64,000 bases of DNA from Candidatus Thorarchaeota archaeon (GTDB taxonomy: Archaea; Asgardarchaeota; Thorarchaeia; Thorarchaeales; Thorarchaeaceae), in assembly GCA_048884785.1 (NCBI GenBank), contig JBHLQM010000009.1, positions 1-64,000 on the forward strand. The letters run 5' to 3'. Positions 1 to 36,173 of the stretch are shown piece by piece. Below the pieces are notes generated by a model. The model was given only the letters and a program-made list of their open reading frames with translations, had not been told where the DNA came from and ran no database searches. Every line of letters begins with the position of its first letter. Position 1 is the stretch's first letter. Made by a program: the position numbers and the translations under genes.

Positions 1-77
1 ACTCGTGGACTCGACAGGGAGAGATCGCCTCCTTGGCATGGAGGAGGTCCTGGGTTCGAATCCCAGCCGGTCCACCA
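1..77 (+). tRNA. tRNA-Ala(GGC), 5' end outside the window; probable D-loop intron
   Basis: Visible elements: GATC (23-26), anticodon arm CCTCC-TTGGCAT-GGAGG (28-44), variable AGGTC, T-arm CTGGG-TTCGAAT-CCCAG (50-66), acceptor 3' strand CCGGTCC, then A-CCA (67-77). Bases 1-22 do not match the expected 5' acceptor strand, so they are intron or flank. Confidence 0.85.
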
Positions 78-134
78 TCTCATTTTCCGCTTCAGTAAAA
101 CTAAAGAGATGCCAGTCTTTTCACACTCTAGATA

Positions 135-1079
135 GTGGTGGGATTGACAGATACAGAAGAGGTAATTTTCGGGACTCTCCTTAAAGCTGACATTTCTGAT
201 ATGGGGTTCGGGACAATAGTAGTTGAACTCGAAGACAGGGAACTCGAATTGATATGGAGCAAGAAAACAGTGGGTGAAATTCCTGCTATTGGTACCAAGG
301 TATATGTTACAGTTGAGATGGCTAAGATTCCAAGAGCCTTGAAACTCTCATTGAATGAGTCTGACAGTGTTGCACAATCATCGTGGGATAAAACTGTGAA
401 AAGGCGTGAAATCGACCAAGCGATGCATGAGGCCCATATAGAATCGCCCGATCTGAGCGACAATATGTTCCTGAATGTACTAAACAATGTACTCTTCCAT
501 GAAATAGTTACCCGGAACCTCACAAGAGCAAGCAAGACACTCTCAACTCGTGCGCAGCAGGAGCTTGAGATTACAATTCCTAGTGGCCCAGGAGTGCAAG
601 ATGCCGTCAATCGGTCAAGACTAAGTGTTTTGGTTTCTAAGAAGATGATACAATTACTGCCATTCTGGATGATTCTGGAAGAGCATTTCAATTCTGATCC
701 GGTCTATCTTGTTGAGCGAGAAATAAAAGATGCAATTCAATATGCTAGGTATCAATTGCAGACCAATAAAGCAAATCAAAAGTCATGGTTGCTACTCGCA
801 TCGTGCCATGCATGGAAAAAGGACTACAAGCAAGCAGAAAAGATGATACTTGAACAAATCAGGGATTTTGGTGAGAATCAGATATCGTTATTCGCGCTTG
901 GCGCATTGGAAATGGGTAAAGATAGGATTGACCAAGCTGTTGAACATCTTGAAACTGCAGACAAAATCGCGGATGAACAAAATTTCGATGAAATGCGAAA
1001 AGTCATTCACGATGCTTGCTTCTTATCCAAACTCATGAAGAAAGCTAGAGGCTCGCCTTTCTTAGAGCCCTTCTTCTAA
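135..1079 (+). CDS. hypothetical protein with C-terminal TPR-like helices (cassette 1)
   Basis: 314-aa ORF. C-terminal SWLLLASCHAWKKDYKQAE and SLFALGALEMGKDRIDQAVEHLETA fit the TPR pattern. Confidence 0.7.
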   Translation: MVGLTDTEEVIFGTLLKADISDMGFGTIVVELEDRELELIWSKKTVGEIPAIGTKVYVTVEMAKIPRALKLSLNESDSVAQSSWDKTVKRREIDQAMHEAHIESPDLSDNMFLNVLNNVLFHEIVTRNLTRASKTLSTRAQQELEITIPSGPGVQDAVNRSRLSVLVSKKMIQLLPFWMILEEHFNSDPVYLVEREIKDAIQYARYQLQTNKANQKSWLLLASCHAWKKDYKQAEKMILEQIRDFGENQISLFALGALEMGKDRIDQAVEHLETADKIADEQNFDEMRKVIHDACFLSKLMKKARGSPFLEPFF

Positions 1080-1166
1080 ACGGATTATCAAAAAATTGAA
1101 GGATATTAGGGCAACGGCGAGCAGATTTTAGTCTTCATAAAGGGGAACTGTCCAAGTAAACCAGAA

Positions 1167-1210
1167 TGGCATGGAGGAGGTCCTGGGTTCGAATCCCAGC
1201 CGGTCCACCA
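1167..1210 (+). repeat. tRNA-Ala 3'-half direct repeat R1 (att-like)
   Basis: 44/44 identical to 34-77, starting inside the anticodon loop (TGGCAT...CCACCA). Confidence 0.97.
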
Positions 1211-1467
1211 TTTCTTTCATGATTAGGTGAACCATATCGAAACTCTTCATCACATGCAATTCTCTTTTCTTGTGGTCCTCGCTCTGTATCTGATATTGAA
1301 TCCATACCAGAGGATGAGAGTCTATCACGCATCCCAATAAAATATGGTCAAGAAGCCATTTCCACATTCAATTCATTATTGACACAAAATGTTATCTCCG
1401 AAATAATGCAGTGTATATGATATTGATATAATGAGCTGCACATCCATTGGGCTAGGAGGACAGTTCC

Positions 1468-4894: not shown

Positions 4895-4945
4895 CTCCTC
4901 CATGTATGGAGGAGGATCGGAGTTCAAATCCCAGCCGGTCCACCA
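4895..4945 (+). repeat. tRNA-Ala 3'-half direct repeat R2, diverged, with palindromic anticodon-arm analogue
   Basis: 4906-4945 matches 38-77 at 35/40. Its left end forms the inverted repeat CTCCTCCAT-GT-ATGGAGGAG (4895-4914). Confidence 0.9.
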
Positions 4946-6320: not shown

Positions 6321-6414
6321 CACCCTCCTATCCGATCTCTCTTGGTTCAACATCTCTTTCCAGTTTGAAGGAAACGGAACGGATGCCATCATTGTGTATT
6401 TCAACCAAAGCAGG

Positions 6415-6456
6415 GGAGGTCGTGTGTTCGAATCCCAGCCGGTCCACCATCTCATT
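6415..6456 (+). repeat. tRNA-Ala 3' direct repeat R4 including 7 nt of tRNA trailer
   Basis: 6426-6456 is identical to 54-84, including TCTCATT after CCA. GGAGGTC matches 43-49. The T-stem 5' strand is GTGTG instead of CTGGG. Confidence 0.93.
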
Positions 6457-6600: not shown

Positions 6601-7086
6601 ATGACAAACGTTGAGGCAGAGGAAAGAAAGAAGACAATTCAGACTTTCAAGAACTGCGAGATTCGTCACGCTCGGGATAAGGCAGCTATCCTAGGTGCAC
6701 TAGAGAAGCGATTTGGCTCAGAGGTAAGAGAAATCTTCGCCGAGGAGAGATCAAAGATAATCTGTGAAGCCTGGAGAAAGATTGCTGAAAAGTCTAAAGG
6801 TGAAACACCAGCCGATCTCATTAGGGTGATGTGGGAGCCTGTCAAGGACATATTTCCATACGAGATTGAAAGAGAGGAAGAAGGGGAAATCCAGCTCAGG
6901 GTTTCAGGATGCATATACTACGACGTTGCAAAGGAAGTCGGCATCGAAGGCACTTGGGGTTACGACTTGTTTTGTGGGGATGATCCATACATTGTGGCGG
7001 GATTCAATCCGAAGATGAAGTTCGAACGAACCAAGACGTTGATGGAAGGAGATGGCTATTGTGATCACTGCTACACTTTGAAGTGA
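6601..7086 (+). CDS. L-2-amino-thiazoline-4-carboxylic acid hydrolase (ATC hydrolase) family protein (cassette 5)
   Basis: C.YY...C..D...GFNP..KFERTKTLMEGDGYCDH signature. Confidence 0.85.
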   Translation: MTNVEAEERKKTIQTFKNCEIRHARDKAAILGALEKRFGSEVREIFAEERSKIICEAWRKIAEKSKGETPADLIRVMWEPVKDIFPYEIEREEEGEIQLRVSGCIYYDVAKEVGIEGTWGYDLFCGDDPYIVAGFNPKMKFERTKTLMEGDGYCDHCYTLK

Positions 7087-7190
7087 GCAGAGAAAGAATT
7101 GAGGATTGTAGGGGTTGGAAGACCCTTCGGATACTGTTATTCGCCAACAAACGGATCACTAATCGAGTCTTCTTTCAAGGATTAACTTGA

Positions 7191-7270
7191 CTTCCAAAAT
7201 GGAAGAGGTCGCGTGACTCCGTGCAACTCGTTTTTGTGGGGTACGAATTCGAATCCCAGCCGGTCCACCA
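7191..7270 (+). repeat. chimeric tRNA-fragment repeat R5 with a 32-nt intron-like insert
   Basis: CTTCC-AAAAT-GGAAG-AGGTC-GCGTG, then a 32-nt insert (7216-7247), then 23/23 identity to 55-77. Confidence 0.9.
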
Positions 7271-7274
7271 CCAA

Positions 7275-7712
7275 TTAATACTCCTTTCTGAAGGCGGAAT
7301 CCATTATTTTCCTCCCCTCTTTCAGACAGCAATTCCTGCAATTTGCCCGTTTCGCTGCAACAATCCCATATCCTACATGTGCAGTTCCCTTCGAATCTTG
7401 GTTTATCGAAACCACTCTTCCGCATGAGGTGAGATACAGATCTCGTTCAATTCCCTTACTCCAACCTCTGGCAGAGTGTATTGGCTCATCTTCTTTAGTA
7501 AGAAAGACTTGGGTCAATCGAACCTCTAAACCAAGTCCAAACTTTAAACCAAGTCCAGCCAGAATGAATCCAAGTCCAACCAGAAAGGGGATCGGAGATG
7601 GAATATAGAGGCTTCCGGTCAAAAGGATACGTGCAGAAACAGGAATGAGGAAAAACAGTACGCCTGCGAAAACAAGTAGTCCTCCAATTAGGCTATAGAA
7701 ATTCTCATCCAT
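7275..7712 (-). CDS. 2-TM membrane protein with C-terminal His/Cys putative metal-binding domain; paralogue of 13467-13850
   Basis: Two hydrophobic helices, then EPIHSA..W.KG...C.R.VS...GTAHVGY.IV.A..A.CxxC, shared with the ORF at 13.5 kb. Confidence 0.8.
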   Translation of the reverse strand: MDENFYSLIGGLLVFAGVLFFLIPVSARILLTGSLYIPSPIPFLVGLGFILAGLGLKFGLGLEVRLTQVFLTKEDEPIHSARGWSKGIERDLYLTSCGRVVSINQDSKGTAHVGYGIVAAKRANCRNCCLKEGRKIMDSAFRKEY

Positions 7713-7925: not shown

Positions 7926-9053
7926 ATGGTAGACTGGGAAACTTGGGAAGGCGTTGTGCTTCGGAAACTCGAATTGCCAAATGGAAAGGTAGCATCCAAT
8001 CGGATCATGCGGGCCGCTACTTGGATGGGACAGGCTGATGCAAATGGGATTTGTGGAAACCAGATCATCGACACATATGGAAAGATCAGAGCTGGTATCG
8101 TAGTGACTGACTTTCAGTATGTGATGTATGAGGGACAGTCCATTCGACGGATGATTTCAAACTCAAAGCCTGCTGATGTTGAGGGTCTTAAACGTCTAGC
8201 TGACATTATTCATTCTAAAGGTAATCTAGCAGCGGCTCAATTGGTTCATTGTGGGGCCAAGAGTTATCCAAAATATGCAGGCATTGATGTGGTATTTGGA
8301 CCCAGTGATATGGAAGTCCCACACCCGCGGGGTGAGATTGTTCGTGTGCAGGCAATGACTGTGGAGCATATTGAGAGAGTTACCCAGGCCTATGCAGATG
8401 CAGCGAAACGTGCAGTTGAGGCAGGATTTGATATCATTGAGCTTCATGGAGCTCATCATTATGGGCTCTGGGAATTCTTTGACCCAACATACAATCAGCG
8501 TCCAGAAAGTGATCCTTACACTGGTACTACAATCGAAGGCCGCTGTAAGGCAATGGTTGATGCCGTAAGAGCAGTCAAAAATGCGGTCGACATTCCAATC
8601 CAAGTGAAGGTGGATTCAAGGTCTAAATCAGTCAGTCCTCAGGAAGTTGGTGAATTGACAAAGAAACTGGCTGAAGCAGGAGCATATTGTGTGATTTTCA
8701 GTGGACCCAACCCAAGCCAAGATCCAAAGGACGTAGGTGAGGCATACTTCCTGGACGATGCAATGGCTATCCGTTCCATTGCACATGATACAGGTCTCAT
8801 GTTTGGATTGGTGGGTGGTATCCGGTCTCCAGAAACTGTAGTCAAGCTACTATCAGGAGATGGAAATCCTGCAAATGCGTTCGATGTAATTCAGCTGAGC
8901 CGCCCATTAATTAGTGAGCCTGCACTTCTAGACCGGTGGAAGGAAGAGGCGAAAAAGAACAAACAAGAGCCTGCGCGATGCATATCCTGCAATAATTGTC
9001 TTTGGAATGGCTTTATAGAGCATGTGAGATGCGTTCAGTTTGAAGACGATTAA
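7926..9053 (+). CDS. NADH:flavin oxidoreductase / Old Yellow Enzyme family with C-terminal Fe-S motif
   Basis: NRIMRAAT, AQLVHCG, AGFDIIELHGAHHY, LSRPLISEP, CISCNNC...C. Confidence 0.92.
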   Translation: MVDWETWEGVVLRKLELPNGKVASNRIMRAATWMGQADANGICGNQIIDTYGKIRAGIVVTDFQYVMYEGQSIRRMISNSKPADVEGLKRLADIIHSKGNLAAAQLVHCGAKSYPKYAGIDVVFGPSDMEVPHPRGEIVRVQAMTVEHIERVTQAYADAAKRAVEAGFDIIELHGAHHYGLWEFFDPTYNQRPESDPYTGTTIEGRCKAMVDAVRAVKNAVDIPIQVKVDSRSKSVSPQEVGELTKKLAEAGAYCVIFSGPNPSQDPKDVGEAYFLDDAMAIRSIAHDTGLMFGLVGGIRSPETVVKLLSGDGNPANAFDVIQLSRPLISEPALLDRWKEEAKKNKQEPARCISCNNCLWNGFIEHVRCVQFEDD

Positions 9054-9067
9054 TGTTGAGGATTAAT

Positions 9068-9130
9068 GACCTGACTCTTCGGTCCCTGCAGACCCGAGAA
9101 GCATTTTTCGGATCCCATTAATCCACACCA
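9068..9130 (+). repeat. possible heavily decayed tRNA 3' remnant R6
   Basis: TTCGGATCCCA...CACCA (9107-9130) resembles TTCGAATCCCA...CACCA. It is preceded by a hairpin and by GACCTG (compare GTCCTG) and lies between genes. Confidence 0.4.
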
Positions 9131-11584: not shown

Positions 11585-11658
11585 CTACTGACAACCTTCC
11601 AGAATGAAGAGCAATATCCTCCATTTAAATAACTTTGAGTTGCCTATTCCTACCGAAG

Positions 11659-11699
11659 TGGAAGAGGTCGCGTGTTTAAACCACGATCGTTTTACACCA
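11659..11699 (+). repeat. decayed tRNA 3'-half remnant R7 of a second tRNA type
   Basis: TGGAAGAGGTCGCGTG is 16/16 identical to 7200-7215. It is followed by T-loop-like TTTAAAC, the complementary strand CACG, and a terminal ACCA. Confidence 0.7.
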
Positions 11700-22218: not shown

Positions 22219-24129
22219 CTACTTGAGCTTAATTGATTCGGTCACATATAGCGCCTTTGTGTCTATGTTCATCGATTTATGAATTGTTGATGCTAGATTT
22301 ACACACTTTGATGCCTCTCCATGACATGTGAGAATCTTTTCAGGAATTGGACTGACTCGTTTGATGAAGTTGAGAATCTGTTTTCTATCTGAGTGTCCTG
22401 AGAACCCCTCAACAGTTTCCACTTGCAGATTTACTGGAACAACTTGGGTGTTTCCATCCTTGTTTCGCATCTGCACTTCTTTCCATCCTTTCTGAATTCT
22501 TCTACCGAGTGTGCCTTCGCCCTGGTATGAAACAAAAGCGACCATATTCTTCGCATCAGGAGCAAGGTATCTGAAATACTCAACACTAGGACCACCGGCA
22601 AGCATACCTGAAGTTGCCATTATTATGCAGGGCTCACCTTCAACAATCTCCTCCCGCTGCTCATGACTATCAACCTGAACGAAAATCTCATTGAGAAACG
22701 GGTTAATTCCTTGGTGAAATATCATCTCTCTAATCTTCTTGCTTAGGGCTTCGGGATGTGTTGTGTGAATTGCAGTTGCTTGAGCAATCATTCCTTCGAG
22801 ATATACCGGTATTTTTGGTATTCGTCCCTTAGTAACTAGGTCTTCAATGACCAGCATTATCTCTTGAGCTCGTCCCACTGCAAGAACCGGAATCAGTACT
22901 TTGCCACCTCTTTCTATGGTTTTTCGAATGATTGAAGCGAATTTTTTCTCAACATCTTGCCTGGGTGGCATCTTATCTGTGGGGTGACCATAGGTGCTCT
23001 CTACAACAAGTGTTTCTAATCGTGGGAAAGTGAATGTTGCAGGCTCTAGAAGCCTGGTCCTTCCAAACTTGAAATCGCCTGTGTAGGCGAGATTGTATTG
23101 CCCATCTCCTATGTGAAGATGTATTATCGCAGAACCCAGAATATGTCCTGCATTATGCAGAGTCAAACGAACATCGGGTGCAATATCAGTCACTTCACCG
23201 TAGTTCAGAGTTATAGTGTGCAAAATTGTCTCCTTTACATCTCTGTCTCTGTAAGGCCGCAGCTTGCCTTCACGCTCCGCGACATCAAGATAATCAAGTT
23301 GTAGCAATGTTGCTAGATTAAGAGTCGGGGCAGTCATATATACAGGGCCTCTATAGCCATACTTGTACAAGAAGGGAACCATGCCGCAATGATCGAGATG
23401 GGCATGCGAAATAATGACTGCATCAAGTTCTTCGATGTTGAATTCAGGCATATCTAATCTGGGAAACGCCTTACTTGGAGTTCCTACATTTACACCACAA
23501 TCAATGAGAATATTTGATTCAGGTGTTTGTATGAACATAGATTGTCTGCCAACTTCTCTAAACCCTCCCAAAGCAGTCAATCTGATCCAGCTAGTTTCAC
23601 CCAGCGGTGCTCTATGAATTCTCTTACCAATCTCTCTAAATGCCTTATTTCTACGAGAGGCTTCAGATTGGATGATATACCGTATTTGTTTAATTAGCTT
23701 GCTTTCAATTGGAGGAGTTCGCATGACATTTGGTCGCCAGAAGGTTTGGCGAGTTATCTCCCTAAGTGTAGTGCCACTTCGCCCTATTACGAGGCCTGGT
23801 TTTTGTGCCTCAATAATTACCTCCCCTCTTGAATCATCAAAATCAACAGTGCTTATTTCTGCCTCTTCTGGAATGAGTTCACGCACAACTCTTTCTGCCT
23901 CTTCGGGTGGAAGCCGAACCTCTGGGGCTGACCTTACAACAATTCGTTTTCGCATTTTTCTTGCTAGTGCCTTGATTTTGTCTCCGTCATCCAGCAGTAT
24001 CTTCGGTGCCTTAGAATAGATTGCTATCTCAGGGCCTTCATACTCCACTGTGCTTATCGCTGCTGAACGGGGCAAGGCTTTCTTCACTGCCTCGCGAATA
24101 TCAATTATTTCATTCTCATCAGAAGTCAT
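22219..24129 (-). CDS. fttA: aCPSF1 / FttA beta-CASP ribonuclease, transcription termination factor
   Basis: Two KH domains, LGGFREVGR, SHAHLDH, GHILGSA, GFSGHSD; adjacent to psmB. Confidence 0.97.
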   Translation of the reverse strand: MTSDENEIIDIREAVKKALPRSAAISTVEYEGPEIAIYSKAPKILLDDGDKIKALARKMRKRIVVRSAPEVRLPPEEAERVVRELIPEEAEISTVDFDDSRGEVIIEAQKPGLVIGRSGTTLREITRQTFWRPNVMRTPPIESKLIKQIRYIIQSEASRRNKAFREIGKRIHRAPLGETSWIRLTALGGFREVGRQSMFIQTPESNILIDCGVNVGTPSKAFPRLDMPEFNIEELDAVIISHAHLDHCGMVPFLYKYGYRGPVYMTAPTLNLATLLQLDYLDVAEREGKLRPYRDRDVKETILHTITLNYGEVTDIAPDVRLTLHNAGHILGSAIIHLHIGDGQYNLAYTGDFKFGRTRLLEPATFTFPRLETLVVESTYGHPTDKMPPRQDVEKKFASIIRKTIERGGKVLIPVLAVGRAQEIMLVIEDLVTKGRIPKIPVYLEGMIAQATAIHTTHPEALSKKIREMIFHQGINPFLNEIFVQVDSHEQREEIVEGEPCIIMATSGMLAGGPSVEYFRYLAPDAKNMVAFVSYQGEGTLGRRIQKGWKEVQMRNKDGNTQVVPVNLQVETVEGFSGHSDRKQILNFIKRVSPIPEKILTCHGEASKCVNLASTIHKSMNIDTKALYVTESIKLK

Positions 24130-36064: not shown

Positions 36065-36173
36065 TGGTGGGCCGGGGGAGACTTGAATTCGGGTTCTGTG
36101 TCAATTACGTCCACAGAATCTCCCGACCTTCGCCGTGTGAAGGCGACGTCATAGCCGACTAGACCACCGGCCC
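36065..36173 (-). tRNA. tRNA-Val(CAC) with a 32-nt intron at position 53/54 (36088-36119)
   Basis: GGGCCGG acceptor pairs with CCGGCCC-ACCA; anticodon arm TCGCC-TTCACAC-GGCGA. Removing the intron restores GGGAG-TTCAAGT-CTCCC and a 77-nt tRNA. Splice motif: central helix CGGG/CCCG with AG|A and AA|T junctions. Confidence 0.95.

Follow-up and report, generated by a model that had tools for sequence, protein, structure and literature searches.

How does a tRNA fragment at a cassette junction come to carry what looks like an intron, from which gene was it taken, and is the intron still alive? The locus that raises these questions lies in a Candidatus Thorarchaeota MAG (genome G000; 3.6 Mb, 158 contigs, 43.7% GC, completeness 91%, contamination 5.4%), in the 64 kb at the start of contig C9 that we analyzed as a whole and refer to as the window. 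It was compared with the 86 species genomes of the GTDB family and the 87 genomes of the class.

Results

A variable cassette array follows the tRNA-Ala(GGC) gene

The 23-mer running from the T-loop of tRNA-Ala(GGC) to its CCA end occurs in six co-oriented copies in the window, where zero are expected by chance.

1-77, plus strand: working tRNA-Ala(GGC) gene, comprising the tail of a D-loop intron followed by a body free of introns; the 5' exon is outside the contig, before its start
Starts 55, 1188, 4923, 5508, 6427 and 7248, same orientation: copies of the 23-mer core, the sixth belonging to the fragment R5

The core of R5 (7248-7270) is identical to the copies at 55, 1188 and 6427 and has one mismatch to those at 4923 and 5508. 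As a tRNA 3' end that reaches to CCA and lies downstream of, and co-oriented with, the tRNA gene, R5 fits a displaced fragment of the att type. Cassettes of 0.6-3.7 kb, each with one or two genes, separate the copies, and the array DNA is variable, unit number and order differing among relatives at the same tRNA. A Pfam scan of the cassette genes recognized only TPR, PIN-like, FMN reductase and ATC hydrolase proteins and no recombinase; a profile search of the whole 91%-complete MAG with PF00589 (Phage_integrase) gave no match, with all control genomes matching, and a XerA-type gene was likewise not seen in this 91%-complete assembly.

The working gene has neither a 37/38 nor a 53/54 intron. 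An earlier note on this DNA had described the resident tRNA-Ala as free of an intron at 53/54, which stands, with the correction that the gene does have an intron in the D-loop, cut by the contig start. The tail of this D-loop intron and the D-stem strand, just before the anticodon stem, match the genes of G061, G069 and G042, and the truncation of the intron accounts for the weak Rfam score (33 bits) and the odd ARAGORN model. Since the tRNA-Ala at the contig start was the sole and weak call of ARAGORN and Rfam on the window, and a tRNA-Val(CAC) gene was missed, gene structures were read by hand.

The left part of R5 is a copy of a two-intron tRNA-Ala(GGC) segment

Read in this way, R5 falls into four parts.

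7175-7199, plus strand: final 25 nt of a 29-nt 37/38 (anticodon-loop) intron of a tRNA-Ala(GGC) gene
7200-7215, plus strand: exon 2, tRNA positions 38-53, with the anticodon-stem 3' strand, the variable loop and the T-stem 5' strand GCGTG
7216-7247, plus strand: insert, a decayed 32-nt bulge-helix-bulge (BHB) intron at 53/54
7248-7270, plus strand: core, with the T-loop, the T-stem 3' strand CCCAG, the acceptor 3' strand and CCA; not the partner of exon 2

Homology ends on the 5' side at about 7172-7175: nothing upstream of about 7172 is significant, and resemblance to the anticodon stem or D-arm there is not above shuffles. Direct reading and alignment to the intron-free tRNA-Ala(GGC) genes of relatives, in which R5 opens a single clean 32-column gap, place the insert exactly at 53/54, as had been claimed. 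Its layout is 1+7+11+7+4+2 (A, 7 nt, 11 nt, 7 nt, TACG and AA), the 7-bp stem consisting of 3 Watson-Crick and 4 G-U pairs and the central helix CGCG/TACG of 2 Watson-Crick pairs, 1 G-U pair and 1 C-A mismatch, so that the earlier count of stem pairs and of one helix mismatch was confirmed on reading.

A BLAST search of the family with 7180-7275 returned full-length matches spanning the insert at 74-84% identity. Eight of these are complete tRNA-Ala(GGC) genes with a 53/54 intron (G028, G037, G038, G041, G042, G051, G061 and G069) and three are fragments (G035, G039 and G054); a covariance-model search, in which R5 scores 79 bits, adds tRNA-Ala(GGC) cases with a 53/54 intron in G045 and G053. 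The insert aligns with the introns of this set without gaps, at an ungapped identity of 18-25/32 (21-25 if G042 is excluded) that none of 20,000 permutations reaches, including 25/32 to the G035 fragment and 21-22/32 to the G028, G037 and G051 genes. The homologues show the 3-nt bulges, 4-bp helix and stable inner helix of the BHB motif, with 93.4% of cells paired against 23-60% when partners are slid, and at four of their pairs both partners have changed, the central helix (CGCG/CGCG versus CGTG/CACG) among them. Judged by sequence, the insert's true relatives are thus the 53/54 introns of tRNA-Ala(GGC) genes.

The sequence in front of the insert has the same relatives. Block 7180-7215 (36 nt) matches tRNA-Ala(GGC) at 94% in G054, 92% in the same-genus G018 and 86-89% in G072 and G073. 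In these genes the block covers exon 2 and the 3' portion of a 37/38 intron, and a GCGTG/CACGC T-stem occurs without a 53/54 intron. The earlier note had derived the fragment from an unspliced, intron-bearing tRNA gene of another isoacceptor or lineage; its intron-bearing origin is borne out by the homology to tRNA-Ala(GGC) 53/54 introns, and the other isoacceptor is contradicted by the match of intron tail and exon 2 to tRNA-Ala(GGC).

Searching the class (87 genomes, 2 mismatches) with the exon-intron junction pattern gave R5 and the G035 fragment, the other 16 matches being unrelated DNA. The G035 fragment, from another genus, has the derived TACG in common with R5. Viral contigs, when scanned, contained neither the junction nor the block of intron tail and exon, circular or viral copies of the R5 arm were likewise not found, and a scan of the genome collection with a 16-nt pattern, which is too short, gave chance matches. 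A metagenome contig scan yielded a sole further exon-junction match, on contig Ga0180437_10273936 (L102). This contig carries, in order, a D-stem strand, the anticodon arm (GGC), a 29-nt 37/38 intron, an exon 2 identical to that of R5, a 32-nt 53/54 intron, the T-loop, CACGC, the acceptor strand and CCA, and the gene appears intact, its 5' exon being unseen because the contig starts within the D-arm. Its 53/54 intron forms a perfect BHB motif (11/11 pairs, -15.0 kcal/mol). Over 97 nt, L102 and window positions 7175-7271 are 89.7% identical with zero gaps: the intron tail (7175-7199) has one mismatch in 25 nt, exon 2 is identical at 16/16 positions, as it is to the genes of G018 and G054 (all three with a GCGTG/CACGC T-stem), and the insert is identical at 26/32. 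The L102 gene body is thus a tRNA gene with R5's exon, ending in GCGTG, followed by a homologous 53/54 intron, of the kind the earlier note had proposed to look for. Together with the Ala(GGC)-type flanks, this match makes R5 the same isoacceptor as the working gene, in a version with two more introns. The left part of R5 (7175-7247) is a copy of a segment of a two-intron tRNA-Ala(GGC) gene, beginning slightly within the 37/38 intron and reaching, across exon 2, to the end of the 53/54 intron.

Directly downstream of the tRNA body, L102 encodes a 381-aa ORF (126-1271, minus strand) with an HTH region and matches to HNH-endonuclease PHROGs (best E 1.7e-12), possibly a homing-type nuclease beside the tRNA; this HNH-like ORF has no homologue in G000. 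Introns of 31-32 nt at 53/54 occur also in tRNA-Ala(CGC)/(TGC) genes of relatives (G018:C14, G074:C9, G075:C19, G007:C25 and G044:C8), where they form another sequence family, starting ACCTTGTG or ACTTCGC; G000's own tRNA-Ala(CGC) and tRNA-Ala(TGC) have no 53/54 intron.

R5 is a decayed hybrid of two gene versions

The BHB motif of R5 is impaired, with a mismatch in the central helix, four G-U pairs among the seven of the inner stem and an unstable fold. Forced into the BHB fold it has an energy of +0.7 kcal/mol, and the G035 fragment +2.1, compared with -8.7 to -15.0 for the intact homologues, which agrees with the earlier description of the insert as decaying; the MFE structure of R5 is without the BHB motif (z-score +1.0). 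The two T-stem strands of R5, GCGTG and CCCAG, cannot pair, the source-type gene having CACGC in the second place, and no tRNA 5' half lies upstream of R5. With no 5' half and an unpaired T-stem, the insert is a fossil and not a live intron, a passenger whose foldable splicing motif has been lost. As the earlier note had remarked, the intron was no bar to the sequence ending up at a cassette junction.

The differences between R5 and L102 are unevenly placed. Two of the ten lie in the first 60 nt and eight within 7235-7259, and the last 12 nt are identical; from L102 to R5, the changes in 7235-7259 are CAC to TGT, CG to TA and CACGC to CCCAG. Those at 7235-7243 are inside the intron, so the joint may precede the T-loop. 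The left part of R5 and its 23-nt core belong to different gene versions (T-stem strands GCGTG and CCCAG), joined at or just before the T-loop. R5 as a whole is very likely a scar of recombination, without function, derived from a tRNA-Ala(GGC) gene.

Other repeats and a proposed two-site model of recombination

The repeats of the array begin at two places in the tRNA. In R1 and R3 the match opens in the anticodon loop and extends as far as CCA; in R2, R4 and R5 it is confined to the stretch from the T-loop onward and preceded by divergent tRNA-like sequence, which in R5 itself starts beside the anticodon loop. Two further fragments were used for comparison.

6404-6449, plus strand: R4, a hybrid of a 37/38-intron tail, an exon 2 ending in GTGTG and the 23-nt core, without a 53/54 intron
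11650-11699, plus strand: R7, a decayed older 3' part of a tRNA-Ala(GGC) gene of R5's type, without a 53/54 intron

R7 has its own T-arm (GCGTG, a 7-nt loop, CACG), and its 16-nt exon-2 block is perfect while its T-loop and acceptor end are heavily decayed, the opposite of the pattern in R5. The similarity of R6 (9107-9130) to the gene is marginal, being reached by 33 of 2000 shuffles, and R6 was excluded as evidence; the region 9050-9130 reads as a decayed CCCAG-type core preceded by a stretch marginally like the 37/38 intron. The order of insertion within the array is assumed.

We infer that DNA inserting at tRNA-Ala(GGC) recombines at two places, the anticodon loop and the T-loop. Mobile DNA that entered at the anticodon loop and left at the T-loop would take with it the intervening host segment with its introns and fuse this segment to its own T-loop-to-CCA end, which would give exactly the structure of R5; the captured segment of the tRNA gene, with its introns, could then be set down elsewhere. 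A parallel case supports such replacement of gene parts: in G054, a working gene without a 53/54 intron is followed, about 335 bp downstream (start to start), by an intron-bearing fragment of the gene type that works in the same-genus G061 and G069.

Displaced fragments are also seen at other tRNA-Ala genes of G000. A second tRNA-Ala(GGC) gene (C99:1-77), intron-free and with a different T-stem, has a displaced 3' fragment at about 840-873, about 800 bp downstream, and the tRNA-Ala(CGC) gene at C29:24813-24889 has one at about 23274-23300, about 1.5 kb downstream, so that several tRNA-Ala genes carry such scars. The two versions of tRNA-Ala(GGC) may reflect strain mixing in the MAG. On contig C38 of G038 (L055), at about 2950 on the plus strand, a short displaced 3' fragment of tRNA-Ala opens with GCGCGAA, the final 7 nt of a 53/54 intron, and continues into the T-loop, indicating that some repeat boundaries in relatives lie inside this intron.

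Imported segment or displaced resident

On balance, we lean towards import: a related population with an L102-like resident gene would have supplied the two-intron segment, carried in on mobile DNA. That cassette traffic brought the intron in from another lineage is plausible in view of the sister fragment with the derived TACG in another genus (G035) and of the outer relic R7, which is free of the intron; the lack of a 53/54 intron in the working genes so far seen in the genus also counts for import. The protein of cassette gene 6601-7086 (ATC-hydrolase family) is 88% identical to a homologue in G009, from another genus (C1:2539672-2540154; DNA identity 80%, over the gene only), and at most 44% identical to proteins elsewhere in the family, a pattern that fits recent horizontal transfer. 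The arm of R5 was not seen travelling with this cassette, as the G009 homologue has no tRNA fragment within 1.5 kb, and the finding of no recombinase and no circular or viral copy of the arm counts against this explanation.

The segment could instead be the displaced 3' part of the resident gene, a less than probable but serious alternative, in which the genome's own two-intron gene was replaced by a cassette with an intron-free 3' part and the 23-nt core was swapped in later at the T-loop, for example through cassette loss. The left part of R5 is of the type that normally works in the genus (G018, at 92%, and, by BLAST layout, G014 and G019), which makes a displaced resident version possible, and the intron-bearing fragment of G054 equals the genus-typical resident gene beside a working gene of another type. 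R5 moreover adjoins a gene at 7275-7712 and a flavin oxidoreductase gene (7926-9053), both of which also lie downstream of tRNA-Ala(GGC) in G051, G028, G039 and G035; against this, flanking genes are shuffled among the arrays of relatives and their order varies. The same-genus working genes seen so far are without the 53/54 intron, however, as is R7, further out and more decayed, and one extra recombination is needed to bring in CCCAG. Import and displacement alike imply that recombination at tRNA-Ala(GGC) changed the intron set of the working gene.

Functional piece, copied intron or chance

A functional role for R5, whether as the 3' half of a trans-spliced split tRNA or as a processed RNA signal serving the cassette transcript, is highly improbable. 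Its intron tail could in principle pair with a partner transcript and its 23-nt core is perfectly kept, but the unpairable T-stem and the unstable splicing motif argue against function, no matching 5' half was found near contig ends or elsewhere in the genome, and the sister fragment of G035 has decayed at different places. A split-tRNA half is rejected on the mismatched T-stem and the lack of a partner 5' half in the genome.

A further alternative is a copy made by intron transposition from another isoacceptor or from another tRNA gene of G000, such as one 29 kb away.

36065-36173, minus strand: tRNA-Val(CAC) gene with a 32-nt 53/54 intron at 36088-36119; covariance-model score 63.2 bits

As the earlier note had claimed, and as direct reading confirmed, this intron has the identical 1+7+11+7+4+2 layout. 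The same 32-nt layout recurs in G000 in tRNA-Thr(GGT) on C77, tRNA-Leu(CAA) on C29 and one gene on C107, hence in at least four tRNA genes, and, by the covariance model, in many tRNA genes of the family, so the resemblance to tRNA-Val reflects the intron class and not a specific link. The R5 insert is identical to the tRNA-Val(CAC) intron at 15/32 positions and to the Val, Thr and Leu introns of G000 at 14-17/32, as against 21-26/32 for tRNA-Ala(GGC) introns; both the exon beside the insert and the 37/38 intron belong to the Ala(GGC) type, and the Ala(CGC) and Ala(TGC) 53/54 introns of the family start differently. A special link to the tRNA-Val intron is accordingly not supported, the lineage-wide layout being all that the two have in common; copying from that intron is rejected on the low identity and the Ala(GGC)-type flanks, and copying from any of these genes is very unlikely. 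A second tRNA-Val(CAC)-like gene of G000 (C119, from 1432 onward, plus strand) has a 37/38 intron and an insert late in the T-loop, intron positions that differ from those of the gene in the window.

Chance resemblance, with the 32 nt an ordinary spacer mimicking an intron, might be read from the G-U-rich stem, imperfect central helix and unstable fold (z-score +1.0), but it is refuted by the homology to tRNA-Ala(GGC) introns (26/32 identity to L102, an identical exon flank, the matching 37/38-intron tail and the 79 bits of the covariance model) and has a negligible probability. As a control for chance, the 127,912 32-mers on the two strands of the window were examined: a 7-pair stem in this register, with G-U pairs allowed, is formed by 0.12% of them, and the fraction that also has the initial A and final AA is 5.5e-5.

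Discussion

The closest precedent is the tRNA-Thr(GGU) gene of Caldiarchaeum subterraneum, where an attP carrying an intron is proposed to be able to add it to the tRNA gene (Sugahara et al., 2012, PLoS One, PMC3293823). There as here, inserted DNA lies between a tRNA gene and a partial direct repeat of it, one copy has a whole intron that the other lacks, and recombination is proposed to alter intron content, so that R5 fits this model as a further example. At the Caldiarchaeum locus the fragment comes from the 5' side, the intron lies at 24/25, a single insertion encodes a recombinase, and the variants belong to one population. R5, by contrast, is a 3' fragment with two introns (the 37/38 tail and 53/54) in a multi-cassette array in which no recombinase was found, is a hybrid of two gene versions, and was compared across genera plus one metagenome contig. 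Archaeal integrative elements (SSV1, pNOB8-type plasmids) also leave tRNA 3' fragments as attL/attR direct repeats, including tandem arrays (PMC3293823), and these resemble R5 as 3'-end repeats to CCA, downstream and co-oriented, with junctions in the anticodon loop or T-loop. Williams is said to have reported in 2002 that integration prefers these two sublocations within tRNA genes. The array differs from them in having no integrase found, units of 0.6-3.7 kb with one or two genes, and an arm made of tRNA-gene sequence with introns. What is new relative to these systems is two introns in one relic, the hybrid nature of the relic, an array in which no integrase was found, and a source-type gene, apparently intact, in a metagenome.

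Introns have also been suggested to protect tRNA genes from integration, an idea cited by Sugahara et al. (2012; PMC3293823); in the present case they gave no such protection. At a single position, R5 and its relatives form a clean presence/absence series, with neither intron in the working gene, both in R5, both in L102 and no 53/54 intron in the near-identical versions that work in sister genomes. Relics of this kind are dated snapshots of earlier gene versions beside the working gene, and so bear on how archaeal, and notably Asgard, tRNA introns at odd positions are gained and lost. A 2026 preprint on Asgard tRNA introns finds repeated gains, no general route of arrival and no link to recognizable mobile elements; its test for mobile elements is based on hallmark genes, and it does not name Thorarchaeota. 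If true, capture at two sites would be a datable route of Asgard intron gain and loss that hallmark-gene screens miss. It is conceivable, if rather unlikely, that integrase-free cassettes of Thorarchaeota in general recombine at the anticodon loop or T-loop, transplant tRNA segments with their introns between populations and so form a general route of intron gain and loss. We consider the value of the case moderate, as the underlying model was put forward in 2012 and the segment may be either imported or resident, with a lean to import.

Introns of the R5 type resemble the T-arm introns treated in the preprint in being removed through a BHB motif that is half exon. R5 itself differs from such live introns as a dated relic in an integrase-free array, which a hallmark-gene test would not flag. 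G000 has two EndA-domain (PF01974) genes, on C35 and C56, which is consistent with a predicted two-subunit EndA of broad specificity.
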